A stretch of DNA of 64,000 bases. Origin: an uncultured Bacilli bacterium. Its GTDB lineage: Bacteria > Bacillota_I > Bacilli_A > RF39 > UBA660. A model generated the notes under the pieces. That model had not been told where the DNA came from. It saw only the letters and a program-made list of their open reading frames with translations, and made no database searches. The position numbers and the translations under genes were made by a program. Below, piece by piece: positions 42,221 to 64,000 of the stretch (positions within the stretch are counted from its first letter, which is position 1; every line of letters begins with the position of its first letter). The stretch is taken from NCBI GenBank assembly GCA_910579535.1, contig CAJTUR010000001.1, forward strand, positions 26,587 through 90,586. The letters run 5' to 3'.

Positions 42221-42269
42221 AAAATCCAAAAATAAAAGAATGGCTATAAAGTAAGTAAATACAAGGAAA

Positions 42270-42300: not shown

Positions 42301-42339
42301 TATAGAAAATAATAAAAAAATATTGTATAATACGAATAT

Positions 42340-42679: not shown

Positions 42680-42710
42680 TTAAGGTACTTTGATAGGAAA
42701 GTATCTTTTT
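42680..42710 (+). repeat. 31-bp direct repeat copy B (TTAAGGTACTTTGATAGGAAAGTATCTTTTT)
   Basis: See copy A. Confidence 0.8.
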
Positions 42711-42744
42711 TGATGGTATAATATTTAATGATTTGGTGAAAAAT

Positions 42745-43746: not shown

Positions 43747-43756
43747 AAACTATTAG

Positions 43757-43786
43757 GAGATACTTGAAGAAAGTATCTTTTATTAT
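43757..43786 (+). terminator. Hairpin AGATACTTgaagaAAGTATCT + T4 (terminator and possible oriT-type inverted repeat upstream of the relaxase gene)
   Basis: Perfect 8-bp stem; shares the AAAGTATCTTTT arm with the 31-bp repeats. Confidence 0.5.
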
Positions 43787-43816
43787 GCAAATTTAAGAAA
43801 GCGAGGAATGATATGT

Positions 43817-45097: not shown

Positions 45098-45398
45098 CAA
45101 AACTTACAAAATCCGAAATTTGACAAGATAGTGTAAATGTGATAAAATTTAGTTGATTTTTGAAAAGGAGAGATTGTTATGTTAAAAATTAATAATATAG
45201 TTAGACAACATCATCATAATAATCTGCACTTGTTAATACGACATTAAAATTTGATCGTAGGCACAAGTGCTATTTGTGGTGCTTGTTGCCTGTATTAAAT
45301 ATAGAAATGAACTATACAGGTAAATAAAATCTGTATAGTTTTTATTTTAGGTAATTAGCATCACTTAAAAAATATTATATGAAAGAGAGATGCTAATT

Positions 45399-47823: not shown

Positions 47824-47824
47824 T

Positions 47825-49114: not shown

Positions 49115-49123
49115 TACTATGGA

Positions 49124-49171
49124 AAGCCGAAATCCAAAAGAAACTTCGTAACTAATGGATTTCGGTTTTAA
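49124..49171 (+). terminator. Terminator of the HisRS operon
   Basis: AAGCCGAAATCC/GGATTTCGGTTT stem followed by T4. Confidence 0.5.
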
Positions 49172-49434
49172 CTAACTTTTAGACAAGTTAGTAACACACT
49201 ACGATATTGGCAAGCCAATAACGATGTGTGCCAAGGGAATTTTCCCTTTGGAAACCCTAGAAGCAACTTATATTGCAAAGTTTCACAATGTAATATAGTT
49301 GCCTTTTTATTTCACTATCGCTACATAAAAAGAAAAAGATTATCGCTGCGTTCATTTGCTAAAGCAAACAAAACGCACCCCACCTTTTTATAAAAAAAAT
49401 AGTCTAATCGCTAATCTTACGAAAAGCGAAAAGA

Positions 49435-49881
49435 CTATTTTTTCTTATTGTATGTTTTCTCTAATAATCTTGCAGTATCTCTTTTGGCTACATATATAGC
49501 TAAGTAAGTTATAAGTTCATAAGTAATCATTACTACAAAGAAGATTATGATTACTATTGAATTATTTGTTAATCCCTTTTTTACATAATCTATAAATTGT
49601 ATTGTTAGATATATTATTCCAAAAACTACTGTTGATATAGTTGTTGAATCATCAAAAGATCGTTGTATCACTCTCGATTCTTCTTTATCAGCATTTAACC
49701 CTCTTACACTCCATCTACCTATTACCATTAACACCAATACCATTAGAAATGGAGTAATAACCCAATACAAATTATAGCCATAATCATTTTTCTGAAATAA
49801 AACTAATACTAAGCTTACTACCATAAAAATATTTAATAATATGATTCCAATATTTCTTATTATAATTTTACTTTTTTGCAT
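49435..49881 (-). CDS. Hypothetical 4-TM membrane protein co-transcribed with the XRE regulator
   Basis: Hydrophobic segments; overlaps the XRE gene by 14 nt. Confidence 0.5.
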   Translation of the reverse strand: MQKSKIIIRNIGIILLNIFMVVSLVLVLFQKNDYGYNLYWVITPFLMVLVLMVIGRWSVRGLNADKEESRVIQRSFDDSTTISTVVFGIIYLTIQFIDYVKKGLTNNSIVIIIFFVVMITYELITYLAIYVAKRDTARLLEKTYNKKK

Positions 49882-50371
49882 TTTTGTTTCTCTCCTTTAC
49901 TTTTAAACTTTGAATCAAAATAATAATTTCTTTAGAAGTATTGATTTGATATTCAGTATCTTCTATTGTATGTAGCAGTAATTCTCTTTCGCTTTCCAAT
50001 ATGTTTTTATTTTCTAAATTTTCTCTACAAGCATTAACAAGCTTTGTTGAATTTTCAATACTACCTAAAACATTGATTTCAGCCTCATTTAATTCATCTA
50101 ACTTCATTTTTTCATAATAAGCTTTGATAAATGGATTTAAAGAACTAACTTCCATGCCTAAACCTATTTTATACATCATCTCGTTATAATTAACATTTAT
50201 AAACTTACTTATCTTTCTTAATGTTTTAGGATTAGGTACTTCTCTTTCTCCTGATTCAATTTTAGATAATTCAGCATTACTAATGTTTGCTTCTTTAGCA
50301 AGTTGTCTTTGTGAGTAACCTGCTTTTTCTCGTGCTTCAGCGATTATTTCGCCGATTTTTTTTTCTTGCAT
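49868..50371 (-). CDS. XRE-family HTH transcriptional regulator (CI/ImmR-like), start at ATG 50371
   Basis: HTH GYSQRQLAKEANISNAELSKIESGER; RBS GAGGTG 7 nt upstream of 50371. Confidence 0.75.
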   Translation of the reverse strand: MQEKKIGEIIAEAREKAGYSQRQLAKEANISNAELSKIESGEREVPNPKTLRKISKFINVNYNEMMYKIGLGMEVSSLNPFIKAYYEKMKLDELNEAEINVLGSIENSTKLVNACRENLENKNILESERELLLHTIEDTEYQINTSKEIIILIQSLKVKERNKNAKK

Positions 50372-50386
50372 TGTAATACACCTCAC

Positions 50387-50549
50387 AAATACATAATAGC
50401 ATATATGTTAACTAAAATCAACAAAATAAATAAAATTGTTTCTAAAAGTGTTGACAATATAGTAATTATCATGTAGTATAGTATGTGTTTCCAAACATTA
50501 ACATTAAATCAAAAATGTTAACAAGTAAGAGAAAGGAGGAAAACTATGA
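50387..50549. promoter_or_regulatory. Divergent promoter/operator region with repeated ATGTTAAC half-sites
   Basis: TTGACA, 17 nt, TAGTAT promoter toward 50550; ATGTTAAC / GTTAATG / ATGTTAAC motifs at about 50405, 50498 and 50516. Confidence 0.4.
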
Positions 50550-50813
50550 ATGAATAAAAGACATCAAGGAATTCCAACAAAGATTTTAAAAGATAAGAGA
50601 ATCAAGCCTGAGGGGAAGTTAATATATTCTTATATATATTCTAAAGGGCAAGATAGGATTATCACAGATCTAAATGTTGGAGAATTACAACAAGTAGTGA
50701 AGATAAATAATCAAGGACTTAGAAAAAACCTTGAAAGATTGGAACAATCAAAGTATCTAATCTATAAAGAATATGATGTAGGAATGTACACAATAAATCT
50801 ACTAGGTTGTTAA
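50550..50813 (+). CDS. Small winged-helix DNA-binding protein (paralogous to 51027 and 57731 proteins)
   Basis: Shared pattern K(x)L..(x)KL(I/L)YSY..S..(I/T)..(L)..L..S...(I)...L..L...(Y)(L/I) with the other two. Confidence 0.5.
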   Translation: MNKRHQGIPTKILKDKRIKPEGKLIYSYIYSKGQDRIITDLNVGELQQVVKINNQGLRKNLERLEQSKYLIYKEYDVGMYTINLLGC

Positions 50814-51026
50814 ATAACTCCTAGTAGATATGGTACAGTAAGATATAAGGCTTATGTTAGTACCTTTTCTATAAAGATAGAATAAACTTCATTTAATCCG
50901 AGAGACAGGATTTAAAATAAAGTCTTAGGGATAACTTTGCCTATTTTATAGGTAAAAGAAAAGCCTATTATTATCATTTTAAATTTAAGGAGAATAATTA
51001 TTTTAAAGTTAGATTGTGAATTTATC

Positions 51027-51482
51027 ATGACTCCACGAATATTATTTAGAGATAAGAAATTATCAAGAACTGAAAATGATGTTTTAAGTCTTATCATATC
51101 ACTTGCCTTAAATAAAGAGTATTGTTATGCTACGAATGATTATCTAAAAGAGTATATAAATTCATCTGATAGAACGATAAATTATTCATTGTCTAAATTA
51201 AAGAAACTTTGCTATATTATAGTAAAACATGAAAGTAGCAAAAGAAGAATATATCTTAATACAGAAAAGATACCAACAAAAGTTGCAGATGAGGGTGCAG
51301 AAAATTGCAGTAATGAGAGTGCAAACAGTTGCACCCATAATATAAATAATAATAAATATAAAAAGAATAAAAGAAATGAAATTATTCCTGAATGGATGAA
51401 ACATCCAGAAATGTGTGTTTCTATTCCATTAAGTGAAGAAGAACAAAAAGAAATGGATGAACTAATGAAAGATTATAAATGA
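51027..51482 (+). CDS. Winged-helix (HTH_36 / replisome-organiser-like) DNA-binding protein
   Basis: N-terminal wHTH region similar to 57731-58024; acidic C-terminus. Confidence 0.5.
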   Translation: MTPRILFRDKKLSRTENDVLSLIISLALNKEYCYATNDYLKEYINSSDRTINYSLSKLKKLCYIIVKHESSKRRIYLNTEKIPTKVADEGAENCSNESANSCTHNINNNKYKKNKRNEIIPEWMKHPEMCVSIPLSEEEQKEMDELMKDYK

Positions 51483-51752
51483 GAGGAGAGATGTGTATGA
51501 TTGGAGGATTTAGTTTATAGAATATGAAAAAAGGGGGAAGTAAGAAAATGGAGGTAGTATATAATGTAAAATATAAATTTAAGACAAATGAAAATCGAAC
51601 TAAGGATGAAATAAAAAGTATATTTAATAACAAATTATTAAATGTCATAATGATTTTAGAAAATCATGAGTTAGCATTTAAAGAATCCTAAATATGAGAT
51701 ATAATATACTTGTATTTACAAATATTTATAGCTGTTCTCATACGTTGGAGGA

Positions 51753-53360
51753 ATGGCTATGATAGAAAAGGTAGGTGTATATTGTAGATTATCTGATGAA
51801 GATAGAGATAAGTTAAATAAAAATGATGATAGTGATAGTATAGTAAATCAAAGAAGTATGTGTTTAAAATATGCTAATCAAAATGGATGGAATGTTGTAG
51901 ATATTTATTCAGATGATGACTTTTCAGGAGCAGGAACTTATAGACCTGACTTTGAAAGGCTTATCAAAGATTGCGAAAGTGGAAAAATAAATTTAGTTTT
52001 ATGTAAAAGTCAATCAAGATTTTCAAGAGATATGGAAGTTATTGAAAGATATTTGCACAATAAGTTTATTGAGTGGGGAGTAAGATTTGTAAGTATTGTT
52101 GATAATGCTGATACAAGTATTGAATCTAACAAGAAATCAAGACAAATAAATGGACTTATCAATGAATGGTATTTAGATGATTTATCAACAAATATTAAAA
52201 AGTCTTTAAAGAATAAACGAGAAGATGGCTTATTTATGGGAAGTTTTGCTCCTTATGGTTATGATAGAAGTGAAGAAGATAAACACAAATTAGTTGTTGA
52301 TCCTGTGGCTGCTGAAGTTGTTAAAAAGATATTTCAAATGTATGCAGAGGGAAATGGCTATCATAAAATATGTGAATATCTAAATAACAATAATATTCCA
52401 CCAAGATCGGTATATAAGAAACAAAAAGGTAGTAAGTTTGTATGTTCTAATTGTGATTATAAAAATGTAAGATGGAATCCTGATACAATAGCTCAAATGC
52501 TTAGAAATGAATTTTATATTGGTAATCTAGTACAAGGTAAAATAACTTCTATGGGGTATAAAGTTCATAAGTTTAAGAAAGTTGCAGAAAAAGATTGGTG
52601 CAGAATAGAAAATTCACACGAGCCAATTATTGATATGGAAACTTGGAACAAAGTACAAAAGATACTTGGTACACATTTAAGTCCTACTAAAACTGGAGAG
52701 ATACACTATTTAAGTAGAAAAGTTTATTGTATGGAATGCGATAAGGTTTTTATGAGAAATGTGTATAGTGTAAAAGGAGAAAAGACAGGAAAAAGAGCAT
52801 ATTTACAATGCAAAGGTGCTAAAAAATATCACACTTGCGATAATAACAAAGCAATTAGAATGGATGAATTAGAAACTATACTACTTAATGCAATTAATGA
52901 TTTACTAGATAATTACTACGATCAAAATAATTTACAAGAACTCTATAACAAAAGAAATCAACAAGACACAAGTAATTGTGAAATAATAAAAGTTTTAGAA
53001 AAAGAAAAGTATAACCTCAATAAAAAGATAGATGATAATAAAACCTTTTATAGAAATCTTTATGAAGATAAGGTAAAAGGAACTATTACAGAAGATATGT
53101 TTAGTATAATGTCTAGCGATTATTTAAGAGAGATAGAATCGATGACAAAAAGAGTTGAAACGATTGATAACGAGATAAATAACCTACAAGTTGTTAAAGA
53201 AGAACGAAAACAAGCTGATGAAATACTAAAGAAATATAAGCATATTAAAGAATTAAATAAAGTAATAGTTGATGAATTTATTGATAAGGTTTATGTTGGT
53301 GTTTATGATAAAGAAACGAAAACACGAGATATTGAAATAGAATGGAACTTAGAATTTTAA
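51753..53360 (+). CDS. Large serine recombinase (integrase/excisionase for the element)
   Basis: N-terminal resolvase catalytic domain VGVYCRLSDEDRD..SRFSRD, recombinase domain, zinc-ribbon CSNCDYK..CMECD, C-terminal coiled coil; 535 aa; adjacent to the right junction. Confidence 0.9.
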   Translation: MAMIEKVGVYCRLSDEDRDKLNKNDDSDSIVNQRSMCLKYANQNGWNVVDIYSDDDFSGAGTYRPDFERLIKDCESGKINLVLCKSQSRFSRDMEVIERYLHNKFIEWGVRFVSIVDNADTSIESNKKSRQINGLINEWYLDDLSTNIKKSLKNKREDGLFMGSFAPYGYDRSEEDKHKLVVDPVAAEVVKKIFQMYAEGNGYHKICEYLNNNNIPPRSVYKKQKGSKFVCSNCDYKNVRWNPDTIAQMLRNEFYIGNLVQGKITSMGYKVHKFKKVAEKDWCRIENSHEPIIDMETWNKVQKILGTHLSPTKTGEIHYLSRKVYCMECDKVFMRNVYSVKGEKTGKRAYLQCKGAKKYHTCDNNKAIRMDELETILLNAINDLLDNYYDQNNLQELYNKRNQQDTSNCEIIKVLEKEKYNLNKKIDDNKTFYRNLYEDKVKGTITEDMFSIMSSDYLREIESMTKRVETIDNEINNLQVVKEERKQADEILKKYKHIKELNKVIVDEFIDKVYVGVYDKETKTRDIEIEWNLEF

Positions 53361-53407
53361 GATAAAAGATGATAATTTGGACTTTTCCGATTCCTGCACA
53401 TGGAGGA

Positions 53408-53668
53408 ACTGATCCTGGAACTATTGCGAATGGAATAACAGAGAAAGATTATACTTTAAAAATAAGTCAATATATGCATGAAAGGTTAAATGATTTGGGT
53501 ATTGAAAATCGTATGACTCGTACAAATGATGAAACCTTGTCTCCAAGTGTGAGACCAGATAGAGCACAAAGTTTTTTTGGAAAGGGTAATGATGTGATTT
53601 TAGTATCTAATCACATAAATGCAGGAGGTGGCGACACATATTTTGTGATTAAAAGTAATTGTGTATAA
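53408..53668 (+). pseudogene. 3' continuation (attR side) of the CwlC-like amidase, itself truncated after about 99 aa of the catalytic domain
   Basis: TDPGTIANGITEKDYTLKIS..MTRTNDE..VILVSNHINAGGGDTYF matches the Amidase_3 catalytic domain (CwlC SDPGATGNGLQEKTLTLQIA..FLSIHVNSGGGTGFESY); stops at 53668 with the C-terminal half missing. ORF-track 53369 start MIIWTFPIPAHGG is element-derived read-through. Confidence 0.6.
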
Positions 53669-54183
53669 TTGTTCATAAGCTTCCTGAAATTATACAACTA
53701 TAGACAAAAGTAAATTAAAAAGGTAGATTTTAGAGTTGAAAAATACAATAATACTATAAAAACTAAATATCTTAACAAATAAATACGATGTTCATGTAAA
53801 AGTATAGGATTTTTTATGATTATGATCATAAAGATTATAATCATAAGTTAAAAGATAAAATTTATATTAATTTGTCACGAAAAATGCTATTTGAGTGTAC
53901 ATACCAAAGCAATCGATGTTAATATGATTCAATCGGGGTCAGAGGGAAATTATTTTACACTGTTTGACTATAATTGAAATAAAAAATATTTGTGTAGCAT
54001 TATATACAACATGCGCAGAATGTGGTATATTAAAGCAAATCGTGTCGTTTGGTATTGCTGACAAGATATCATACACCAATCTAGAGTAGCTTTTTACTCA
54101 TAGCAGATAGATGTTTTTCGATAATATAGTATTTTTAGTGTGAAAGTTAAGACACAGATTATAATGGAGAGGAGATTTTAAAA

Positions 54184-56127
54184 TTGAAGAATAATATTTT
54201 TGAAAATATGGAATTCCTCGGGTCACTTTCAAAAAAGTTTGATGGACAAGAACAGATTATGGAATCTCTCCATTTAGCAGCGAAGCAACTAGAACTTTCC
54301 GGTATTGCAAAATATGCTAATTTAGCTACTGCCATGTCATCTAAGCAGATTGGAGCTATTGGTTCTGCCTATCTTAGCGGTGCATTTCAATTTGAAAAAA
54401 AATTAGCTCAAAAATTACATGATATTTATGCCCCGCTAGAAAAGGCGTTTGACAATATTGCCACAGTTGAAAATCTGTTAGGCATGCACTTTAAAGAACT
54501 TGTGCAACCATCATTTTATTTGCCAGATATAAGTGGAATCCTTGCTACAGTGAATAGTTGTTCATCGGCATTATCAAGGTCGGCATCAGTACTAGATACA
54601 TCTTGGGTGCAACAAGTGAATCCATGGCTAACGGATGTTTCGCGTTTTAATACTATGGATACTAGTGCACTTATAGGCATGAATACAGAATTTTCAAAGC
54701 TTATTAAATTAGAACAAGAAACATCTGGTCTTGCATTAATTGCTGAGAGTTTTTCAAAAATTACGAGTGCGTCAGCTCAATTGGCTTCTATAGAAAATTT
54801 GCTTTCTGGTCTTGCAGAACAATGGCGTGATGTAATTGTTCCGCTCCGATTTTTAGATGATTATGGTAACTTTGCGTTACGACAATATACTTTGATTCAA
54901 AAAGCAGCCAGTGAAAATGATGATAAGTCAGTTGAATGGCGTTTAGATTTGTTAGATGCCACTTCCAAATTTGTTGATAGACAAATTACATGGGCAAGTG
55001 ACTTTTCAGTGGACATTCAAGAGGATATTGATTCCAAGAATTTACCTGTTATTGAAAATGAATTAGATATTGCATTAATTCCTCAGTACATTGGATATTC
55101 TAAACGTGATGCTAAGGTAGTTGAGAAAGCTCTTGTAGAATCAGATATTTCAATCATTACAGAAAAAGGTAAGTTAATTGTCAACAAGGCTCGACTAATT
55201 AAAAAAATTTGCAAAGTAAATAATAGAGAATTGCTTTTTGAAAATACAGATTTTTATGTTGGAAGTTATATAACACTCGCAGGGACTTTCTGCAGGAATA
55301 CAGATTCTCTTAAAAGTGTAGTAGATGCTTTATATCATTTGTTATTTTCTCAAAAAGAAGTACTTTCTGTATTTATAGATTTAGATGATTTTGAATGCAT
55401 AGAACTAATCAGTAATCTGAAAGATAAGGAACTATATCCAGAGCAATCTAAGGAAATATCAGATTTACAAAATAGAGTGTATGATTACTTTCTCAACTTG
55501 GAAGATGCTATTATTGAAAAAATTGAAATTGATTCATCGTTTGGTCAGTCAACAGTTTCAGCTACTACAATGTTGTCCGAAGATAACTGGACTGAAGAAA
55601 CAGTGAGTAAAAATATCTTAAAAGCATTACTCAAGGTACAAGGTAACAAAACTTTTTATGGAAAAAAAGAGGATGAATTAAACGATTGCATTAGAGATAC
55701 TCTTAGCATGGTCTATGAGATGAAAGATCAATCCAGACAAGGAGTCTCTCCTAGTGGAAAAGATGCTGGTGAAGTGGATTTACAAATATGTAGAGATGGA
55801 TTTCCTATTGCTATAATAGAAGGTTTAAAAGTTAATTCTTTAGATCGGAACTACATACAGAACCATATTGACAAAGTTCTTACATGTTATGACCCCTTTG
55901 GTTGTCCATATAGTTATGTAGTAATTTATGTAACAGTTAAGAAGTTTGAAGATTTTTGGGTAAACTGTCTAAACTATATACGAGATGAATATAGTTTTCC
56001 CTATACAATAAAAAAAGAAATCCAAGAACTAAATCATATGTATTCATCTTCGAGACATGCTAAAATAGTGTTATTACGTGATGGCAGAGAAGTATCAGTT
56101 CATTTTTATGCATTATCAGTACAGTAA
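54184..56127 (+). CDS. Hypothetical 647-aa protein, GC-richer than the genome, C-terminal PD-(D/E)xK-like nuclease motif
   Basis: TTG start with GGAGAGGAG RBS; Ala/Ser/Leu-rich helical N-region; GEVDLQICRDGFPIAIIEGLKV resembles a D...ExK nuclease core; first gene of the second island. Confidence 0.5.
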   Translation: MKNNIFENMEFLGSLSKKFDGQEQIMESLHLAAKQLELSGIAKYANLATAMSSKQIGAIGSAYLSGAFQFEKKLAQKLHDIYAPLEKAFDNIATVENLLGMHFKELVQPSFYLPDISGILATVNSCSSALSRSASVLDTSWVQQVNPWLTDVSRFNTMDTSALIGMNTEFSKLIKLEQETSGLALIAESFSKITSASAQLASIENLLSGLAEQWRDVIVPLRFLDDYGNFALRQYTLIQKAASENDDKSVEWRLDLLDATSKFVDRQITWASDFSVDIQEDIDSKNLPVIENELDIALIPQYIGYSKRDAKVVEKALVESDISIITEKGKLIVNKARLIKKICKVNNRELLFENTDFYVGSYITLAGTFCRNTDSLKSVVDALYHLLFSQKEVLSVFIDLDDFECIELISNLKDKELYPEQSKEISDLQNRVYDYFLNLEDAIIEKIEIDSSFGQSTVSATTMLSEDNWTEETVSKNILKALLKVQGNKTFYGKKEDELNDCIRDTLSMVYEMKDQSRQGVSPSGKDAGEVDLQICRDGFPIAIIEGLKVNSLDRNYIQNHIDKVLTCYDPFGCPYSYVVIYVTVKKFEDFWVNCLNYIRDEYSFPYTIKKEIQELNHMYSSSRHAKIVLLRDGREVSVHFYALSVQ

Positions 56128-56225
56128 CTATAGTAAGCTATTACATTTAGAGGTAATATAAACGTTAGGTATGAATATTAGAGTAGTATTTTACAAGCCA
56201 TCATTAATATAATAGCTTAATATTC

Positions 56226-56477
56226 TTGAAATATATATCTGATTCTTTTGAAGAAAGACACAAAGTGCTCGTTGATGAAAGAATTGCCCTAGACGAAGAG
56301 AAAGATAGTTATACTGAGAGGAATATATTTTATGTTCTTAAGAATACTAGATGGAATTATCTAGTAGAATATTCTAAAGATGAAAATGTTGGTGTGATTA
56401 TTGATGATGCTCTCACTCTGATTGAGAAAGACAATTCATCATTTAAGAATGTGAGAAATTTGATAATTTCAATTTAA
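56226..56477 (+). CDS. Hypothetical small protein (TTG start), weak call
   Basis: 83-aa ORF only; no RBS or homology support. Confidence 0.25.
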   Translation: MKYISDSFEERHKVLVDERIALDEEKDSYTERNIFYVLKNTRWNYLVEYSKDENVGVIIDDALTLIEKDNSSFKNVRNLIISI

Positions 56478-56853
56478 GCATCTATGATATAGTGTAAGTA
56501 GTAAATGAAAGGAAAAAACTATTTATGTACTATAATTATAATTTGTTTATGCAAAGTTTAGATAATTTAGTAAACAATTAGAAAAAAGTAACAATGAAAG
56601 TGATAAAAAGATTCTAGATACTTTAAAGAAAACTATTGATGCTTTAAAGTCAGTTTCTGAGCTAAATCAAAATGAAACTCAAGCATTTTTAAATCTATTA
56701 TCATTCTCTGTAGGTAGTTCTGTAGTTTTAACTAATAATCAGCAATAAAGGTATTTGAATTGATACCTTTTTTTGCAGTTAAAATAGCTTTAGAATAGTG
56801 ATTATTTGCACAAAATTTGATATAATAGATATAACAAAAAAGGAGGCAATTCT

Positions 56854-57666
56854 ATGGTTGAAATAACTTATGATAGAGTTCAAGAGGAAAATAATCCCAA
56901 AGTAAAACAATTATATTGGGACATAGCTTTTGGACTTCAAGATGTTGATGGATTAAAGCCATCACAATATATGAAAGATCTATCCGAAGAACATATAAGC
57001 GGGAAAAAGACTTATGAGCAAGTTCAAAATGAAATAACTTCTTATTATAGTAAAAACAAAGATAATCATGAAGATGATGATGAAGAAGAAGCAGATGAAG
57101 TTGCAACTGCTATATATGAAATATTAAGCGATAGATCATTTAGATTTGATTTTCTTACGTTAAAGAATTATCACAAAAGATTGTTTATTAATTTAGATAA
57201 AGAAAAATATAATCCTGGTAATTTTAGAGATTATAATTTTACAAAAGATGAACCAGTATTAAAAGGAGATACAGTTCAATATCAGTCTTATGATTTAATA
57301 GAAGAAACTTTAAAATATGATTTTAATGAAGAAAAAGATATTGATTATTCTAGTTTTAGTGAAGAAGAGTTAATTGATCGAATTACTGAATTTACTTCTC
57401 GAATTTGGCAAGTACATCCATTTCAAGAAGGCAATACTAGAACAACTGCTGTATTTATTCAAAAATATTTAATTAGCATGGGATTTAATATTAATAATGA
57501 GTTATTTAAAGATAATGCTTTATACTTTAGAAATGCTTTAGTAAGAGCTAATTATACTAATTATTCTGTGAGCGTTAAAGAAACAAAAAAGTATTTAATT
57601 ATGTTTTTTGAAAACTTGTTATTAAATAAAAATAATGATTTAAATAACGATGATTTAAAAATTTAA
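56854..57666 (+). CDS. Fic/DOC family protein
   Basis: Fic motif HPFQEGNTRTT (HxFx[DE]GNxR); RBS AAAGGAGG. Confidence 0.75.
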   Translation: MVEITYDRVQEENNPKVKQLYWDIAFGLQDVDGLKPSQYMKDLSEEHISGKKTYEQVQNEITSYYSKNKDNHEDDDEEEADEVATAIYEILSDRSFRFDFLTLKNYHKRLFINLDKEKYNPGNFRDYNFTKDEPVLKGDTVQYQSYDLIEETLKYDFNEEKDIDYSSFSEEELIDRITEFTSRIWQVHPFQEGNTRTTAVFIQKYLISMGFNINNELFKDNALYFRNALVRANYTNYSVSVKETKKYLIMFFENLLLNKNNDLNNDDLKI

Positions 57667-57730
57667 AAATAAATGAAAGTTTGTGTGAATAACATGAACT
57701 TTTTTGTTTGCAAGAAAAGGAGAAAGAACA

Positions 57731-58024
57731 ATGAAAATAAGAACTATAAAGGATAAAGATTATACTGTTATGAGTAACTATCATTTTAAAGATAAAAGGT
57801 TAAGTTTAAGAGCAAAAGGACTTTTATCTATGATGTTATCATTACCAGATGAATGGATATATTCACTTAATGGGCTAAATAGCATATGTACTGAAAGTAG
57901 AACAACTATTAGAAATGTGATTAAAGAATTAAAAGAGTTTCTTTATTTGGATGTAATTGAAAAACGAAGAGAAGATGGAAAAATTTATTATGAATACACT
58001 ATATATGAAAATCCTTTTAAATAA
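57731..58024 (+). CDS. Winged-helix DNA-binding protein (paralogue of 51027 protein); internal start MKIRTIKDKDY
   Basis: RBS AAGGAG 8 nt upstream of 57731; the track ORF starts at 57704. Confidence 0.5.
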   Translation: MKIRTIKDKDYTVMSNYHFKDKRLSLRAKGLLSMMLSLPDEWIYSLNGLNSICTESRTTIRNVIKELKEFLYLDVIEKRREDGKIYYEYTIYENPFK

Positions 58025-58220
58025 TCCATGGCTACGTTTTCTACCACTGGATTTACCGTATACGGTATTTTAGTACACTATAAAGTATTTAGTAAATAAA
58101 ATATTAAATAACAAATAGATAAAATAGATAAAACCAAATTTGAAAATTTGAATTTAAACTGTTTCAAAGTTTGTCAAAATATGATATACTTATTAAGTAA
58201 GGAAAGTAAGGAATAATGAA

Positions 58221-58436
58221 ATGAAAAATAATAATTTATTAGCTTCGGCAAAACTAACATCAAAAGGGCAAATTACTATTCCAAAGATAGTAAGAGACAC
58301 TTTAGCACTTGGAGTAGGAGATTCTGTAATCTTTTATTTGGATGATAAAAAGAATATAAAAATATCTAATAGAAAAGATTGCAAAATTGAGTCTGATATA
58401 AAAAAAGAACAGATAGTTGTTAGGAGCGGTAAATAA
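58221..58436 (+). CDS. AbrB/MazE/SpoVT-domain DNA-binding protein (regulator or antitoxin-like)
   Basis: SKGQITIPKIVRDTLALGVGDSVIFY swapped-hairpin motif; directly precedes hsdM. Confidence 0.6.
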   Translation: MKNNNLLASAKLTSKGQITIPKIVRDTLALGVGDSVIFYLDDKKNIKISNRKDCKIESDIKKEQIVVRSGK

Positions 58437-60535
58437 TGAAAGAAACAATGAATATAAATAAAGAAGTTGCTATGGTATGGAGTATAGCAAATAAACTTAG
58501 AGGAGTATACAAAAGCGATAAATATAAAGATGTAATTATTCCTATGGTTATAATACGTAGATTTGAATGTGCATTAGCAAAAACAAAAAACAAGGTAGTT
58601 GAAGCATACTCAAAAGATAAAACTATACCTGAAAAAATATTATGTAAATTATCGGGGCACTCATTTTATAATACGAGTAAATTTGATTTAAAAGAGTTAT
58701 TAAACGACTCAGACCATATTTCAGCAAATTTTAAATCTTATATAAATGGATTTTCGACAAATGTTAAAACCATTTTATTAAAAGATGGCTTAGATTTTGA
58801 ACCTGATATAGATAAAATGGCAAAAAACAATAGATTATTAGGAATTATAAAAGAATTTAGTAATCTGGATTTAAATCCCGAGACAGTTAACAATCATAAG
58901 ATGGGATATATTTTTGAAGATATTATTAGAAGATTTTCTGAAAATGCTGAAGCTGGTGATCACTTTACTCCAAGAGAAGTAATTAAACTTATGGTAAAAA
59001 TCTTATTATCTGAAAGCTGCGATGATTTAGCTACTCCAGGTAAAACTATTACAGTATTAGATGCTGCTTGTGGAACTGGTGGAATGCTAAGTACAACTAG
59101 AGAATCAATTATGGAATTAAATCCAAATGCGGATGTTCAACTATTTGGGCAAGAAGTTAATCCTGAGTCGTATGGTATTTGTTTAGCTGACATGTTAATT
59201 AAAGGCCAAGATGCAAAAAACATTAGGTTTCAAGATACTATGAAAGCTGATTGTTTTTCTGCAACTCTGAACGATAGAGAACAAAAAATGAGATTTGTTA
59301 TTATGAATCCACCATTTGGTCAACCATGGGGCGGAAAAGATGCAGCAGATGGAGTTGAATCTGCAGTCAAAAAAGAATATGAAAAGGGCTTTAAAGGTAG
59401 GTTTGTCGCTGGACTGCCAGGAACTGGAGATATGCAGTTGTTATTTATGCAACATGCAATTTCTAAATTGGATGATAATGGTCGAGCAGCAATAATAACT
59501 AATGGATCTCCACTGTTTTCTGGAGGAACTTCTTCTGGGGAAAGTCAAATAAGAAGATGGATGATAGAAAATGATTTAATTGAAGCTATTATTGCGCTAC
59601 CGACCGATTTGTTCTACAACACCAATATTGGAATATATGTATTTATATTATCCAAACCTGATATTAAATTATCTAAACGTAAAGGGAAAATTCAGTTAAT
59701 AAATGCTACTGACGAAAATTTTTGGACTCCATTAAGAACATCTTTAGGTAAAAAAAGAAAAGAAATATCTGATAATCGAGATAATAATCAAATAAAGAAA
59801 ATAGTAGATTTATATGCTGAATTTAAAGAGAATAAATATTGTAAAATATTTGATAAAGAAGAATTTTTATATAGGGAATATGCAGTTTATCAACCATTGC
59901 AGAGAAGTTATGCAATAAATGATGAAAGAATAGAAAATTTAAGAAATAATGGATATTTAGATAATTTCTATAATCAAGATAAAATAGATGAATACTTATT
60001 GTTAGATCCAATACCCACAAAGCAAAAGAAAGAGTTAGATAAATACTTATTAAATAAAAATACTTATGAATCTATATTTGAAATATTGGAAAGAAATAAA
60101 TCAAATAAAGTATATAAAAAAGAAAGAGAGTTTAATGATTATATTAAGACCATATTAGATATACCAAAAAATATATTAGAGAAAGTAATAGATGGATTAT
60201 CTATGATGGACAAAACTGCAGAAATACATAAAGATAATAAGGGCAATATAATAATAGATAAACAAACAAAGGATACGGAAATTGTTAAATATACAAAGGA
60301 TATTGATGAATATATGAAAGAGGAAGTATTACCTCATGTACCGGATGCTATGTATTTTTTTGAAGAAGATACAAGTGCAAAGAAACCAATTATTAAGACA
60401 GGTGCAGAAATTCCATTTACTAGATATTTCTATGAATATAAAGAACCTAAAAATTCTGAAAAATTAGAAAGAGAGTTTTTAGAATTAGAGGCATCTTTAA
60501 ATAAAAGAATAGAGGATTTGTTTAAGGAGGTATAA
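58436..60535 (+). CDS. hsdM: Type I restriction-modification system methyltransferase subunit
   Basis: N6-adenine MTase motifs DAACGTGGML (motif I) and NPPFG (motif IV); 699 aa. Confidence 0.9.
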   Translation: MKETMNINKEVAMVWSIANKLRGVYKSDKYKDVIIPMVIIRRFECALAKTKNKVVEAYSKDKTIPEKILCKLSGHSFYNTSKFDLKELLNDSDHISANFKSYINGFSTNVKTILLKDGLDFEPDIDKMAKNNRLLGIIKEFSNLDLNPETVNNHKMGYIFEDIIRRFSENAEAGDHFTPREVIKLMVKILLSESCDDLATPGKTITVLDAACGTGGMLSTTRESIMELNPNADVQLFGQEVNPESYGICLADMLIKGQDAKNIRFQDTMKADCFSATLNDREQKMRFVIMNPPFGQPWGGKDAADGVESAVKKEYEKGFKGRFVAGLPGTGDMQLLFMQHAISKLDDNGRAAIITNGSPLFSGGTSSGESQIRRWMIENDLIEAIIALPTDLFYNTNIGIYVFILSKPDIKLSKRKGKIQLINATDENFWTPLRTSLGKKRKEISDNRDNNQIKKIVDLYAEFKENKYCKIFDKEEFLYREYAVYQPLQRSYAINDERIENLRNNGYLDNFYNQDKIDEYLLLDPIPTKQKKELDKYLLNKNTYESIFEILERNKSNKVYKKEREFNDYIKTILDIPKNILEKVIDGLSMMDKTAEIHKDNKGNIIIDKQTKDTEIVKYTKDIDEYMKEEVLPHVPDAMYFFEEDTSAKKPIIKTGAEIPFTRYFYEYKEPKNSEKLEREFLELEASLNKRIEDLFKEV

Positions 60536-60538
60536 TTC

Positions 60539-61879
60539 ATGACTAAAATTAAGTACAGTGGATCACAATGGATAGGTGCTATACCAATTGAATGGAAAGT
60601 CAATAGGCTTAGATATAATTGTGATTTTAAAACAGGAGGAACTCCTCCTGATAAATATGGTATTAATTTAATAGGAGATGGATATCCTTGGATAACAGCT
60701 CAGGATATGGGAAATGGTTTTGAAATAACAAAATATACTCAATATATTTCTGATGATGCAATTAAGCTATGTAAATATAAATTGTTTCCTGCCGGCTCAA
60801 TTTTACTTGTGTGTATAGCATCAGTTGGAAAGATTGGATACTCTTTGGAAAAAACATATTCTAATCAACAAATAACTTCATTAAAATCTAAAGCTCATTT
60901 GTTTGATAAATATCTTTTATACTTAGTTATATCTTTATCACCCATGATAGAAAAAGATGCTTCAAGTAATGTAGTTTCTATAATAAATACACAATATCTT
61001 AAAAATATTAATTGTTGTTTCCCAATATATAAAGAACAACAATTAATAGCAAATTTTCTTGATGAAAAAGTCAACAAAATTGATAAGATAATAAATGATT
61101 TAAATAAACAAATAGATATAATTAATGATTATCGTAAATCTCTTATTATAGAAACTGTTACAAAGGGATTAAGAAACAAAATAAAACTTAAAGATACAAA
61201 AATAAATTGGATAGGATATATTCCACAACATTGGAATGTTAAAAAAATAAAGCATTCATTTGTTGATAATAATTTTGGTATAAAGGTAGGCCCTTTTGGC
61301 AGTTCATTAACTGATTGTGTAGTTAGCGAATCGGAGGGTGACTATAAAATATATGGACAGGCGAATTTAATAAGAAGGAATTTTTTGTTTGGAGATAACT
61401 ATATAACAAAAAAGGACTTTAATAGATTAAAAAATTATGAGGTTATAGCGGGCGACATAGTTGTATCAATGATGGGTACTATTGGAAAATGTAGAGTTGT
61501 ACCAAATAATATTGAAAGAGGAATAATGGATTCACATTTAATTAAGATAAGACTAGACAAAAAAATAATGAACTCTAAGTACTTTGAATATCAATATGAA
61601 GGAAACAATATATATGAACAACTTTTATATTATAGTAATGGAAGTATTATGAGTGGGCTAAATTCAACTATTATCAAAAATGTATATTTTGTTTATCCAC
61701 CAATAGATGAACAAAATGAAATAGTTAAATATTTAGATAGTAAATGCGCTAAAATAAATAAAATATTAGAAGAAAAAAACAAACAGATTGAGCAAATGCA
61801 ACAATATAAAAAATCAATAATATATGAATATGTAACAGGTAAGAAGAGAGTGAGAGGAGCAGAAGAACTATATGGATAA
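60539..61879 (+). CDS. hsdS: Type I restriction-modification specificity subunit (two target-recognition domains)
   Basis: 446 aa with duplicated TRD and conserved-helix architecture (..KQIDIINDYRKSLI.. and ..KQIEQMQQYKKSII..). Confidence 0.85.
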   Translation: MTKIKYSGSQWIGAIPIEWKVNRLRYNCDFKTGGTPPDKYGINLIGDGYPWITAQDMGNGFEITKYTQYISDDAIKLCKYKLFPAGSILLVCIASVGKIGYSLEKTYSNQQITSLKSKAHLFDKYLLYLVISLSPMIEKDASSNVVSIINTQYLKNINCCFPIYKEQQLIANFLDEKVNKIDKIINDLNKQIDIINDYRKSLIIETVTKGLRNKIKLKDTKINWIGYIPQHWNVKKIKHSFVDNNFGIKVGPFGSSLTDCVVSESEGDYKIYGQANLIRRNFLFGDNYITKKDFNRLKNYEVIAGDIVVSMMGTIGKCRVVPNNIERGIMDSHLIKIRLDKKIMNSKYFEYQYEGNNIYEQLLYYSNGSIMSGLNSTIIKNVYFVYPPIDEQNEIVKYLDSKCAKINKILEEKNKQIEQMQQYKKSIIYEYVTGKKRVRGAEELYG

Positions 61880-64000
61880 TTTCTTTAAAGAAAGAGAAGA
61901 ATATCAAAGATATATAATTAATTATTTGGTTAATAACAATGGATATAAAGAAAGAAAGTTTTCTGAAGGAAAATATAATCCGTTATATGCAATGGATACT
62001 GAATTGCTTCTTCAGTTTTTAGAGACTACTCAATCTGATACAATTGCATATTTGAGAGATTTATATCCAAATGCTGATGAATTAATTATTAAAAAGATTA
62101 ATGAAAGTATTACTAGGAGAGATAGCAGTTTAATTAGCAAATTAAAAAATGGTATATATTTTGATAACACTACACATTTAGATTTAATGTATGATAAACC
62201 AGCAACTTCTATAAATGAAGATTTGATGGAAAAATATAATAGTAATATTTTTTCCATTATGGAAGAAGTTTATCATAAAGATGGAGAAAGAATAGATTTA
62301 GTAATATTTTTAAATGGTATTGCGATTATCACTATTGAATTAAAGAGTAATCAGTCTGGTCAAAATTATGAAGATGCTATTGAACAATATAAAAATGATA
62401 GAGATTATACTACGAGACTATTATCATTTAAAATTGGTGCATTAGTTAATTTTGCAGTGGATACTAAAGAAGCATATATGTGTACTGAATTAAAAGGTAG
62501 GTCATCTTTCTTTTTGCCATTTAATAAAGGAACAGAAGATGGTGGGAAAGGCAATCCACATAATGATAATGGATTAAATGTTTCTTATATGTGGGAAGAT
62601 ATATTAACTAAAGATACTTTATTATATTTAATTAAAAACTTTATATTTGTAGAAAAAGAGGAGAAAGAAGATCCTAATACTGGAAAATTAAAAATAAAAG
62701 AAAGTTTAATTTTTCCTAGATATCATCAATTAGATGCAATAAGAAATTTACTTTCTGACTTTAAAATTAATAGGACTAGAAAAAATTATTTAATTGAGCA
62801 TAGTGCGGGTTCTGGAAAAACTAAAACTATTGCTTGGTTAGCCTACAGATTACAGTGCTTGCATGATGTAAATGAAAAAAATATATTTGATTCTGTACTA
62901 ATTATTACAGATAGAATAGTTGTTGACCAACAACTCCAAGATGCAATTAAATCTTTAGACCATGATCCAAGTTTAATAAAAGTGATGGACGAAGATTGTA
63001 GTTCTGCAGATTTAGGTGATGCTATAAAAAATGGTTATAAAATAATTGTTTCAACTATTCAAAAGTTTAGATACATATTAGATGAAACTAAAAACATTAC
63101 AGATAAAAGTTTTGCAATAATTATTGATGAAGCACACTCATCTACTTCTGGAAAGAATATGTCTGCTGTTACTACTGTTTTATCCGATGAAACAGAAGAA
63201 GACTTAGATTCTATTGAAGATCAAATGGTAGAAGAAATTAGTAAAAGTGGAAAGCAAAATAATATATCAATGATAGCATTTACCGCAACTCCTAAAAAAC
63301 AAACTCTTCAATTATTTGGAACTCCAAATGAAGATGGTAAGACAGCCCCGTTTCATGTATATGGAATGAAGCAGGCTATACAAGAAGAATTTATATTAGA
63401 TGTACTAACTAATTACACAACTTATAAAACTTTCTATGAAGTAACTAAAAAAATTGAAGATAATCCAGAAGTATTTAAAAGTTTTGTAAAAAAGAAACTT
63501 AATCGTATTGTTGATTTAGATCCACATAATATAGGTCAAAAAGTTGAAATAATTATAGAGCATTTTAGAGATTGTATTATGAGAGAACTTGGTGGAAAAG
63601 CTAAAGCAATGGTGGTTACATCTTCTAGAGAAGCAGCAGTACGTTATAAATTAGCATTCGAAAGATACATTGTAGAACATAATTATACAGATATAAAAGC
63701 ATTGGTAGCATTTTCTGGAAAGGTTCCTGTGGATGGAATTGAATATTCTGAGGTTGGTATAAACAAAATACCAGAAAAAGATTTAAAAGCAGAATTTGAT
63801 AAAGATGATTATCAAGTTTTACTAGTTGCCAATAAATATCAAACAGGCTTTGATCAACCAAAATTAGTTGCAATGTATGTTGATAAAAAACTAAAAGGAA
63901 TAGCAGCTGTTCAAACACTATCTAGGTTAAATAGAATATGCCCTCCTTATGATAAAAAGACTTTTATATTAGATTTTAAAAATGATTATGTGGATATAAA
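61872..64000 (+). CDS. hsdR: Type I restriction enzyme R subunit, 3' end beyond the window
   Basis: ATG 61872 overlaps the hsdS stop (ATGGATAA). Open frame to the window end with N-terminal nuclease motif DLVIFLNGIAIITIELK, helicase motif I EHSAGSGKT, DEAH box IIDEAHSS, Q-tip region. Absent from the track because it has no stop. Confidence 0.85.
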   Translation, partial: MDNFFKEREEYQRYIINYLVNNNGYKERKFSEGKYNPLYAMDTELLLQFLETTQSDTIAYLRDLYPNADELIIKKINESITRRDSSLISKLKNGIYFDNTTHLDLMYDKPATSINEDLMEKYNSNIFSIMEEVYHKDGERIDLVIFLNGIAIITIELKSNQSGQNYEDAIEQYKNDRDYTTRLLSFKIGALVNFAVDTKEAYMCTELKGRSSFFLPFNKGTEDGGKGNPHNDNGLNVSYMWEDILTKDTLLYLIKNFIFVEKEEKEDPNTGKLKIKESLIFPRYHQLDAIRNLLSDFKINRTRKNYLIEHSAGSGKTKTIAWLAYRLQCLHDVNEKNIFDSVLIITDRIVVDQQLQDAIKSLDHDPSLIKVMDEDCSSADLGDAIKNGYKIIVSTIQKFRYILDETKNITDKSFAIIIDEAHSSTSGKNMSAVTTVLSDETEEDLDSIEDQMVEEISKSGKQNNISMIAFTATPKKQTLQLFGTPNEDGKTAPFHVYGMKQAIQEEFILDVLTNYTTYKTFYEVTKKIEDNPEVFKSFVKKKLNRIVDLDPHNIGQKVEIIIEHFRDCIMRELGGKAKAMVVTSSREAAVRYKLAFERYIVEHNYTDIKALVAFSGKVPVDGIEYSEVGINKIPEKDLKAEFDKDDYQVLLVANKYQTGFDQPKLVAMYVDKKLKGIAAVQTLSRLNRICPPYDKKTFILDFKNDYVDI

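Follow-up and report, generated by a model that had tools for sequence, protein, structure and literature searches.

Tn4451/Tn4453-type mobilisable transposons encode a TnpX recombinase and a Mob/Pre relaxase. In staphylococci, SCC and SCC-like cassettes use Ccr large serine recombinases and occur as tandem defence cassettes (PMC11470126). Intervening elements have been described within sporulation genes, namely skin in sigK, SPbeta in spsM, and gin in gerE; of these, gin carries a restriction-modification (R-M) system and is not a prophage (PMC4191935, PMC5499854, PMC5595907).

We analyzed a 64,000-nt stretch of DNA from an uncultured Bacilli bacterium (hereafter the window), in which two elements split one amidase gene. 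Element 1 resembles Tn4451/Tn4453 in having a large serine recombinase at one end and a Mob_Pre relaxase, whereas element 2 has no relaxase, and neither element carries a catP-type antibiotic-resistance gene. The locus shares with SCC the small large-serine-recombinase cassettes, their tandem arrangement at one chromosomal site, and their richness in anti-phage systems including type I R-M. SCC, however, enters rlmH at its 3' end, does not destroy the gene, and uses one Ccr type per site, whereas here two or three unrelated recombinase lineages cut separate conserved motifs in one coding sequence and thereby split the gene, and the hosts are uncultured spore-forming gut Bacilli. As in skin, SPbeta, and gin, a large serine recombinase gene adjoins the junction, and the insertion lies within a gene with a putative late mother-cell-type promoter in a spore-forming host; carriage of an R-M system is shared with gin. 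The locus differs in that up to three elements occupy one gene, and in its target, an Amidase_3-LysM hydrolase not mentioned as a target in the cited reports on these elements (PMC4191935, PMC5499854, PMC5595907). Excision at sporulation is a proposal here, and no sporulation-type promoter or directionality factor was found for the recombinases.

A second site-specific insertion in the amidase gene

The pieces of the amidase gene and the two elements lie as follows.

42129-42155, + strand: sigma-K-type promoter motif (AC-N16-CATAAAATA); the amidase start codon follows 20 nt downstream
42176-42220, + strand: amidase 5' fragment, MAKKIVIDPGHGG then Y*, read from the sequence
42215-53407, + strand: element 1 (11.2 kb), with tRNA-Trp, Mob_Pre relaxase, S66 peptidase, HisRS paralogue, XRE regulator, and large serine recombinase
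51753-53360: large serine recombinase gene within element 1
53408-53634, + strand: amidase middle fragment, Amidase_3 positions 5-79 of 174 (Pfam, 1.4e-16), inside ORF 53369-53668
53626-53634, + strand: AGGTGGCGA, the core at attL of element 2, with an identical 9 bp at attR, ~72358-72366 in coordinates extended past the window
53635-64000, + strand: element 2, left 10.4 kb of 18,732 bp, an integrative defence island running past the window end

The core of site 1, acatggagga (42205-42214), is repeated at 53398-53407, and the 5' fragment of the amidase joins in frame to position 53408 onward. The middle fragment was identical in eight metagenome contigs. An initial annotation, made from the letters of the window alone, had the amidase end at 53668 in the middle of its catalytic domain. 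The gene is indeed broken inside that domain, the 99-aa product of ORF 53369-53668 aligning to Amidase_3 profile positions 5-79 of 174. The true break, however, lies at 53634/53635, the last base of the core AGGTGGCGA; the C-terminal end of the ORF reads ...HINAGGGD|TYFVIKSNCV*, and its final 11 codons are element DNA.

The same annotation saw no continuation of the amidase in any frame, and tblastn with the 3' part as query likewise found no other amidase 3' part in the window. This absence, in a window that stops inside hsdR, would fit a plain deletion or rearrangement that truncated the amidase and left the defence genes as ordinary chromosomal neighbours with no second boundary. The right part of element 2 is read from same-strain contigs reaching past the window (L001, L109, and L110). 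L001 differed from the window by one mismatch over 10,631 bp, and L109, which includes the right end of element 2, matched L001 over 3,045 bp with no mismatch. A second copy of AGGTGGCGA was found at L110 6331-6339, followed by the in-frame remainder of the amidase. The right junction on L109/L110 rules out loss of the amidase by deletion, and a recombinase-to-amidase junction recurs in dozens of genomes; we regard a deletion with no second boundary as extremely improbable. The second cut in the amidase was caused by site-specific insertion of element 2, and the proposal that the same gene was hit twice is thus borne out by a recombinase of the element's own, a repeated core, and an in-frame 3' remainder. 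Removal of element 2 rebuilds attB as KGNDVILVSNHINAGGGDGAEVIYSLRNSDRL, in frame, so that the amidase ORF is restored. The three amidase pieces joined encode a complete 396-aa protein with an Amidase_3 domain (residues 5-180, profile positions 1-173 of 174) and four LysM domains.

Past the window, element 2 continues from the type I R-M system through a membrane protein, a TrlF/Ppl-like ATPase, and a 174-aa protein to a second large serine recombinase. On L109/L110 this end reads TrlF-like protein (781 aa), 99 aa, 174 aa, 31 aa, recombinase P0303, a 141-aa ORF, the core, and the amidase 3' part. P0303 is a 545-aa large serine recombinase with Pfam Resolvase, Recombinase, and Zn_ribbon domains; it is identical over 443 aa to the partial recombinase gene in L001, and its orthologue at the related locus L011 likewise has all three domains. 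We conclude, with a probability of roughly 85% for this explanation as a whole, that a second integrative element, site-specific and 18.7 kb long, has its attL at 53634/53635. Its recombinase would join attP on a circular form to the DNA encoding the NAGGGDGAEV motif of the Amidase_3-LysM gene. For the window's own strain, no circular form, attP junction, or empty site of element 2 was seen.

Defence cassettes in the amidase gene of related genomes

Relatives of the element 2 recombinase were followed by the amidase 3' part in 62 of 80 loci, the latter starting within 140 bp in 26. The exact 29-nt attB, built from the left flank of the window and the right flank of the closely related L011 allele, was present in seven contigs of other species that are only ~70% identical overall; none is of the same species as the window. 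Site 1 is occupied independently of site 2, and all four occupancy states exist in related genomes: both sites are empty at L097, with an intact 403-aa gene, site 1 alone is filled at L099, site 2 alone at L027, and both in the window and at L065. These states bear out the suggestion of a hotspot hit by independent insertions. A third recombinase lineage interrupts the LysM region of the gene. The three lineages, which share ~31% and ~39% identity, cut the motifs GHGG, NAGGGDGAEV, and LysM PGDTLY.

Cargo at the related loci was almost wholly defensive: R-M systems of types I, II, IIG, and III, Hachiman (HamB), IetS, a Gabija-like ATPase, and the PADLOC candidates PDC-S51, PDC-S57, and PDC-S73. 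Judged from these predicted gene contents, the amidase gene is a landing site for defence cassettes in many uncultured gut Bacilli. The amidase would be dispensable in growing cells and thereby offer a safe landing site, with the recombinase lineages using different conserved motifs of it.

The interrupted amidase as a putative mother-cell lysin

The amidase gene comes after rplM-rpsI, the position of cwlD in Bacillus. CwlC of B. subtilis is a mother-cell lysin that depends on sigma-K and GerE and has no signal peptide. The cwlC gene product has been described as a terminal mother-cell lysin (PMC517825). The amidase here resembles CwlC and CwlD in its N-terminal Amidase_3 domain without a signal peptide, wall-binding repeats, and sigma-K-type promoter motif, and differs in that the repeats are four LysM domains. 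It was rejected as CwlD itself, scoring 74.6 bits against an NCBIfam cut-off of 221.55, having no N-terminal membrane segment, and carrying the four extra LysM domains.

The sigma-K-type motif matched just twice in the whole window on both strands, once upstream of the amidase, and a CwlJ/SleB-like neighbour carries the same motif. Among 25 orthologous amidase upstream regions, 14 have it in this position, compared with 1.1% of 914 upstream regions of other ORFs. NCBIfam matches to YabG (294.7 bits, cut-off 270.4) and YabP (94.9 bits, cut-off 75.4) mark the host as a spore-former. Given the conserved motif and the spore-forming host, the amidase looks like a late mother-cell lysin, and the protein would thus act as a cell-wall hydrolase late in the mother cell.

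The same observations bear on whether elements 1 and 2 behave like skin, SPbeta, or gin, intervening elements excised during development. In the mother cell, the two recombinases would then remove both elements and rebuild the amidase, while the spore would keep the interrupted copy and its defence cargo; this is compatible with a second integrative element and adds a regulated excision step. In favour are the spore-forming host, the conserved motif before the amidase and on its CwlJ/SleB-like neighbour, the missing signal peptide as in CwlC, and the 3' parts of interrupted amidases, which are open over at least 250 codons in 61 of 62 cases. Known intervening elements, moreover, rely on large serine recombinases, and R-M systems can be part of their content (PMC5595907, PMC4191935). 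However, a crude pattern scan in sense orientation found no sigma-K- or sigma-E-type motif before the recombinase gene of either element or the 174-aa gene, no recombination directionality factor was found, intact ORFs are also expected from recent insertions, and cells may simply tolerate the lack of a mother-cell lysin. Developmental excision is, in our estimate, a tentative proposal with the odds against it.

Cargo of element 2

The genes of element 2 within the window follow the order initially described, from the 647-aa ORF (54184-56127) to hsdR at 61872.

53814-53846, no strand: 14-nt inverted repeat, a possible operator, in the spacer preceding the 647-aa gene
54184-56127, + strand: 647-aa protein, helical N-domain (residues ~1-450) and nuclease-like C-domain (~463-647)
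56226-56477, + strand: remnant of a further hsdM gene, 83 aa; Pfam HsdM_N 1.4e-8, profile positions 31-108 of 135
56854-57666, + strand: Fic-domain protein, 270 aa; Pfam Fic 39.1 bits (cut-off 24), PADLOC candidate PDC-S72 (1.2e-84)
57704-58024, + strand: wHTH protein; Pfam HTH_36, PHROG 4707 (1.4e-19), resembling the N-terminal DNA-binding domain of replication initiators
58221-58436, + strand: AbrB/MazE-type small DNA-binding protein; Pfam MazE_antitoxin 2.6e-10, NCBIfam AbrB domain
58436-60535, + strand: hsdM, type I methyltransferase, 699 aa; Pfam N6_Mtase 1.4e-57, HsdM_N 3.3e-21
60539-61879, + strand: hsdS, 446 aa, two target-recognition domains; Pfam Methylase_S in two stretches
61872-64000, + strand: hsdR, first 709 of 1150 codons; the full protein ends in a YunG domain

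The full 1150-aa HsdR has HSDR_N, ResIII, and T1R_D3 domains and matches PADLOC REase_I (4.3e-30). By these domain matches, the type I R-M system is complete, with HsdM, HsdS, and HsdR each present and intact. The overlapping start and stop codons ascribed to its genes hold for abrB/hsdM (one shared base, 58436) and hsdS/hsdR (8 bp), but hsdM and hsdS are 3 bp apart. Contrary to the initial claim, the island as a whole is not richer in GC than the host: values for most of its genes fall at 0.21-0.28, compared with a mean of 0.280 over the window. The 647-aa ORF is the sole richer gene (0.330; 0.34-0.37 over its first 900 bp), a value similar to that of gyrA (0.329). In the Fic protein, the motif reads HPFQEGNTRTTA in place of the HxFx(D/E)GNGRxxR of Fic/Doc AMPylases, the G and last R being replaced.

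The small conserved backbone of element 2 comprises the recombinase gene, a 171-174-aa gene immediately before it, and the wHTH gene, which is Rep-N-like; the L027 element has a homologue of the wHTH protein at its left end. The cargo consists of the complete type I R-M system (AbrB-like gene, hsdM, hsdS, and hsdR-YunG), Fic, the membrane protein with the TrlF/Ppl-like PHP-ATPase, and the 647-aa protein. The hsdM remnant, absent from the initial annotation, shows that this cargo was rearranged in the past. Together with the 141-aa ORF between recombinase and attR, which is missing from L011, and frameshifted recombinases at related loci such as L031, the remnant might indicate that element 2 is a decayed, immobile relic now fixed in the chromosome. 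Against this, its recombinase is full length with three domains, both junction cores are intact, and at the same site close relatives with 96-98% identity have other cargo, such as the Gabija-like pair of L011, which indicates recent turnover. We consider fixation of a decayed element unlikely.

The 647-aa protein

The 647-aa protein matched no family in Pfam, NCBIfam, PADLOC (E <= 0.01), or PHROGs, in agreement with the description of it as having no recognisable family apart from a C-terminal PD-(D/E)xK-like motif. Neither hmmsearch against PDB sequences nor Foldseek against PDB structures gave a match, the latter yielding nothing significant. An AlphaFold2 model of the C-domain (pLDDT 86) places a helix at 34-46, strands at 50-53, 71-75, and 78-88, a helix at 93-106, and a strand at 114-121. 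The predicted model thus contains the alpha-beta-beta-beta-alpha-beta core of the PD-(D/E)xK fold. E496, D515, Q516, D532, E546, H561, K564, and Y569 are invariant; D532 and E546 are placed as the PD-(D/E)xK motif expects, K, R, N, or V occupies the position of the ExK lysine, and the invariant K564 lies in the following helix rather than at that position. Matches to PD-(D/E)XK/Mrr nucleases in a viral structure library were weak (E 3e-3 to 5e-2, TM 0.3-0.5).

A profile of the C-domain gave 1,117 matches. In STAND/ROCO proteins the domain recurs as the terminal module, with fusions to LRR-Roc-COR and NACHT proteins, and forms of 297-299 aa are the second gene in two-gene operons after an ATPase-like protein of ~1020 aa. 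In P2-EC5, ORF555 (an NsnB/AriA-like ATPase) is followed by ORF333, which carries the C-domain. Protein P0125 matches PADLOC LmuA (PDLC03853) at 3e-69, and its last ~270 residues correspond to 376-641 in the 647-aa protein (profile E 1.1e-33). The 647-aa protein itself, however, falls below the LmuA model, and its N-domain is a different, unannotated helical domain. Its gene neighbours are the hsdM remnant and Fic, with no SMC-type LmuB or LmuC partner in the island. Assignment as Lamassu LmuA was rejected on the lack of a PADLOC match at E <= 0.01 and of an adjacent LmuB. Full-length homologues sit among toxin-antitoxin, HNH, WYL, NACHT, and FRG genes. The protein has no specific association with R-M or Fic, its homologues occurring in five further neighbourhoods that all differ.

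The idea of a defence effector with a PD-(D/E)xK-like C-terminus gains, short of proof, from the occurrence of the C-domain in the LmuA match, the STAND/ROCO fusions, and the ATPase-effector cassette of the P2 prophage; the fold matches are weak. On these relationships, the most likely role of the 647-aa protein is single-gene defence, in which its N-domain would sense or regulate and its C-domain would cut nucleic acid. On a less likely reading, the protein may serve the element in maintenance or anti-defence or be phage-derived: no defence-family model matches it, and an N-domain-only homologue lies between an HNH gene and a portal gene on a phage-like contig. The recurrence of the C-domain in STAND/ROCO proteins, the LmuA-matching protein, and ATPase-linked operons, and the company of the full-length homologues, argue against it and for the defence role. 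Bolder, and in our judgement rather unlikely, is a combined scheme in which a mother-cell-only amidase serves as a multi-slot dock for the three recombinase lineages, several defence cassettes stack within its one ORF, the dying mother cell excises them all and so rebuilds the lysin, the spore inherits the complete arsenal, and the 647-aa protein is a new single-gene anti-phage system. If true, this would amount to the skin/sigK rearrangement with several elements, devoted to the carriage of immunity.

The spacer upstream of the 647-aa gene has a GC content of 0.256 and contains 12 promoter-like matches, compared with 5.4 +/- 2.4 expected.

Two insertions split the amidase gene

The amidase gene is first interrupted by element 1, an 11.2-kb insertion at site 1 (coordinates without a contig name are window positions).

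42129-42155, sigma-K-type motif, 20 nt before the amidase start
42176 onward, 5' part of the amidase, reading MAKKIVIDPGHGG and then element 1
42215-53407, element 1, with a large serine recombinase (rec1, 51753-53360) at its end and a repeat of the core acatggagga
42268-42301 and 42678-42711, ~34-bp direct repeats (aattaaggtactttgrtaggaaagtatctttttt)
42339-42411, tRNA-Trp region

The amidase reading resumes at 53408, after element 1. ORF 53369-53668 corresponds to positions 5-79 of the 174-position Amidase_3 profile, and past ...SNHINAGGGD the frame consists of 11 further codons of unrelated DNA. The initial annotation had noted a second truncation here, and this holds: the fragment leaves Amidase_3 after that motif, and tblastn found no other match to the 3' part in the window.

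Exact look-ups with window proteins led to mouse-gut metagenome contigs of the same strain that run past the window end. Contig L001 showed 1 difference in 10,631 bases from the window and continued with the rest of hsdR, genes for a 243-aa membrane protein, a 781-aa PHP-ATPase (NCBIfam TrlF family, 6.8e-70, under the cut-off; PADLOC Ppl, 7e-24), and 99-aa and 174-aa proteins, and the start of rec2, the large serine recombinase of element 2. Full-length rec2 (P0303, 545 aa) was identical to this partial gene product across 443 residues and was located, by way of its protein cluster, on contigs L109 and L110; L109 had 0 mismatches to L001 in 3,045 bp. At their right end, L109 and L110 contain the recombinase, a 141-aa ORF and the sequence ...tatccgtccccAGGTGGCGAtggtgcggaagtt, followed by an open frame GGDGAEVIYSLRNSDRL... 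with four LysM domains. The 9-bp core AGGTGGCGA lies at this right junction and the identical 9 bp at 53626-53634; because the core repeats at both junctions, element 2 is 18,732 bp long. The extension past the window thus yielded the 3' remainder of the amidase and a second repeat pair, as expected for the second, independent insertion that had been proposed, and the repeated core with an in-frame remainder excludes a plain deletion of the 3' end. The three-piece composite amidase (396 aa) has a full Amidase_3 domain (residues 5-180, profile positions 1-173 of 174) and four LysM domains. We conclude that the second break is real and that it was caused by a second insertion.

The attB rebuilt across element 2 is KGNDVILVSNHINAGGGDGAEVIYSLRNSDRL, and the predicted junctions of element 2 are AATGCAGGAGGTGGCGATGGTGCGGAAGT (attB, the empty target site) and CCGTCCCCAGGTGGCGACACATATTTTGTG (attP, the junction of the circularised element). 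Large serine recombinases are used in genome engineering, and the analysis provides predicted attB/attP pairs for two new ones.

Element 1 also carries genes for a Mob_Pre relaxase (43808-45097), an unannotated 494-aa protein, an S66 LD-carboxypeptidase (46861-47823), which we take to be MccF-like, and a full-length HisRS paralogue (47825-49114). These genes resemble a self-protection set against an antibiotic of the aminoacyl-adenylate type, on an element that can be mobilised. The tRNA-Trp gene lies directly past the left junction, flanked by the two direct repeats.

The amidase gene is a shared landing site

A recombinase search with one genome per species gave 80 loci, all in gut MAGs labelled Bacilli, Tenericutes, Mollicutes or similar. 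The amidase 3' part was found downstream on the same strand in 62 of the 80, starting at most 140 bp from the recombinase stop in 26 and remaining open for at least 250 codons in 61 of the 62, and the 5' part was also found 6-14 kb upstream in many loci. Sites 1 and 2 are filled independently, and all four occupancy states exist: both empty (L097), site 1 only (L099), site 2 only (L027) and both filled (the window and L065). The earlier suggestion of a hotspot is borne out by this adjacency and by the four states. Across a large group of uncultured gut Bacilli, this gene is a conserved landing site for defence cassettes, as tracking of one recombinase family revealed. A 29-nt attB, assembled from the left flank in the window and the right flank in the closely related L011 allele, was matched exactly in seven contigs from other species whose identity elsewhere is only ~70%; the site codes for a catalytic-motif region and shows unusual conservation.

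In L081 (12970-17189), the second LysM repeat of the amidase is split by a minimal 3.2-kb element that carries a HAD hydrolase and a recombinase of a third lineage (39% identical to rec2). A recombinase of this lineage also sits immediately upstream of a LysM-coding fragment in each of L065, L080 and L086. L031 (6791-13051) has an intact 355-aa amidase gene and, 3.6 kb upstream of it, a rec2-type recombinase broken by a frameshift (108 + 423 aa), which could represent a decayed or displaced element. L011 (CAZSXH010000028.1) is filed under a Muribaculaceae MAG, yet it is probably mis-binned, because its recombinase is 98% identical to that of the window strain and its neighbours are clearly Bacilli-type.

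Element 2 belongs to known kinds, namely serine-recombinase integrative cassettes, defence islands and gene-intervening elements. In the literature searched, no case was found of a serine recombinase targeting an amidase or cwlC gene, which does not prove absence; nor was there a precedent for one putative sporulation amidase gene being used at several sites, for the breadth of this use across an uncultured clade, or for the unannotated effector domain described below. Small serine recombinases have been reported as defence markers (PMC13552941); they are a different enzyme class from the large enzymes here.

The target is a putative sporulation amidase

The window (28% GC) is a low-GC chromosome segment near the replication origin, with the gene order, by position and size, of dnaA, dnaN, gyrB, gyrA, dnaX and recR, then rplM and rpsI. 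The host is a spore-former, since YabG and YabP exceed the NCBIfam equivalog cut-offs and SpoVG and YabQ are present too. The amidase has no signal peptide and adjoins a convergent CwlJ/SleB-like Hydrolase_2 gene; its identification as CwlD was rejected, with a score far under the NCBIfam curated cut-off. The motif AC-N16/17-CATAnnnTA, which we take to be the B. subtilis sigma-K consensus, was present 40-66 nt before the start in 14 of 25 distinct amidase orthologues, with control rates of 0.55% in random windows, 1.1% in 914 other ORF upstream regions and 0.44% at that position. It occurs only twice in the whole window. On L109, a sigma-K-type motif (5289-5316, minus strand) lies 17 nt upstream of the Hydrolase_2 gene and is the sole match in this 11.8-kb contig.

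From these sequence features we infer that the amidase is a late mother-cell hydrolase, dispensable during growth, which would explain why the insertions are tolerated. In B. subtilis, cwlC encodes a terminal mother-cell lysin (PMC517825), and the insertions are reminiscent of skin, SPbeta and gin, serine-recombinase elements that are cut out of mother-cell genes (PMC4191935, PMC5595907). Because a pattern search revealed no sporulation-type promoter motif before the recombinases, regulated, sporulation-linked excision is kept as a hypothesis that we consider less likely than not. If excision proved to be tied to sporulation, mobile immunity would be linked to the germ-line/soma split of spore-formers.

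The elements carry variable, defence-type cargo

ORF clustering of 18 delimited elements revealed a small backbone, namely small genes at the left end, the recombinase and, immediately before it, a gene of 171-174 aa; the cargo varies from element to element. PADLOC matches in the cargo were type II, IIG and III R-M, Hachiman HamB, IetS, a Gabija-like ATPase and the candidates PDC-S51, PDC-S57 and PDC-S73. The L011 element has an OLD-like ATPase and a UvrD-like helicase instead of the window's cargo. The elements at the amidase site are defence cassettes. Defence-family models matched 18 of the 20 large cargo proteins scanned, which makes the sequence enclosed by the two amidase parts a good place to look for candidate immune genes; cargo with no such match, the 647-aa protein for example, is a natural candidate. 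The behaviour of the elements is similar to that of SCC-like tandem cassettes with Ccr recombinases in staphylococci (PMC11470126), with two differences: here the target is a coding gene, which is split, and several recombinase lineages are at work.

The gene order given for element 2 (the 647-aa ORF at 54184-56127, fic, a winged-helix gene, an AbrB-like gene and hsdM-hsdS-hsdR) was recovered, with an additional 83-aa HsdM_N remnant (56226-56477; profile positions 31-108) from a different hsdM between the 647-aa gene and fic, which indicates that the cargo was rearranged in the past. Contrary to the initial description, the island has no raised GC level: its genes have a GC content of 0.21-0.28 versus the window mean of 0.280, and only the 647-aa ORF lies above that range (0.330), not exceeding gyrA. 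Base composition was therefore dropped as an island marker. Megablast of 53369-58200 against phage genomes gave no match. The type I HsdR (1150 aa; 61872-64000, continuing on L001 at 8733-12185) has a fused C-terminal YunG domain (residues 1032-1147; Pfam, 1.1e-27). In the PADLOC PDC-S72 model (377 positions), the Fic protein aligns to positions 12-269, and the HTH_36 gene that follows has a weak match (E 0.0088) to the C-terminal portion of the SoFic model; together (56854-58024) they may represent a Fic-wHTH fusion in split form.

The 647-aa protein contains a widespread C-terminal module

Scans of Pfam, NCBIfam, PADLOC and PHROGs assigned no family to the 647-aa protein, in agreement with the initial annotation, and its 31 close homologues, mostly from mouse-gut Lachnospiraceae-type MAGs, are all unnamed. 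Profile matches among 1.84 billion representatives numbered 1,117 and revealed two modules. The N-domain (~residues 1-450) is all-helical and also stands alone; it has no Pfam or PHROGs family, and N-domain-only homologues likewise had no Pfam match. One of these (459 aa; L103, 908-3309) is encoded between HNH endonuclease and phage portal genes, roughly the usual site of terminase genes.

The C-domain (~residues 463-647) was found in hundreds of proteins: AlbA_2 fusions of 297-299 aa, encoded in two-gene operons after a ~1020-aa ATPase-like protein; the C-termini of LRR-Roc-COR and NACHT giants; P0125, which matches PADLOC LmuA (3e-69); and ORF333 of prophage P2-EC5, beside an NsnB/AriA-like ATPase. 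With 1,117 profile matches, it appears to be a widespread unnamed effector module in several conflict-system architectures. The two-gene operon is conserved in L114 (1936-5894) and L116 (1918-5900), where several of the C-domain proteins have a precomputed AlbA_2 assignment and the upstream partner is 1020-1028 aa long, with a faint HATPase_c_3 match in L114; the L116 operon adjoins another large serine recombinase and a KilA-N gene. The P2-EC5 cassette (L108, AM157364.1, 243-2913), consisting of ORF555 (the ATPase) and ORF333 (weak CARF_PDDEXK match), looks like an uncharacterised two-gene defence system.

The C-domain has the invariant residues E496, D515, Q516, D532, E546, H561, K564 and Y569. 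As to the proposed C-terminal PD-(D/E)xK-like nuclease, the AlphaFold2 model (pLDDT 86) shows an alpha-beta-beta-beta-alpha-beta core. The Foldseek matches to viral nucleases of the PD-(D/E)XK or Mrr type were weak, and nothing significant emerged from the PDB for the full-length or C-domain model. The top PDB matches, tyrosine phosphatases (TM ~0.3), were judged meaningless. Profile searches of PDB sequences found nothing for the 647-aa protein or P0125. Lamassu membership of the 647-aa protein was rejected, with no LmuB and no LmuA model match. On balance, we lean slightly towards a candidate single-gene defence nuclease.

Full-length homologues occur in five neighbourhoods, with no fixed partner:

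1, toxin-antitoxin, HNH, WYL and dynamin island
2, element beside spoVAC
3, beside a helicase gene (L095)
4, NACHT, FRG and TPR island
5, beside an IS66 TnpB gene and cell-envelope genes (L106)

Given these differing contexts, the idea that the protein is tied to R-M or Fic was rejected. A homologue with 71% identity is part of an element that immediately follows spoVAC in L093 and L094 (3156-9745), where its neighbours are a truncated recombinase, an ImmA-like HTH-peptidase and a DUF1016 nuclease; here too, a mobile element may have inserted into a sporulation operon.
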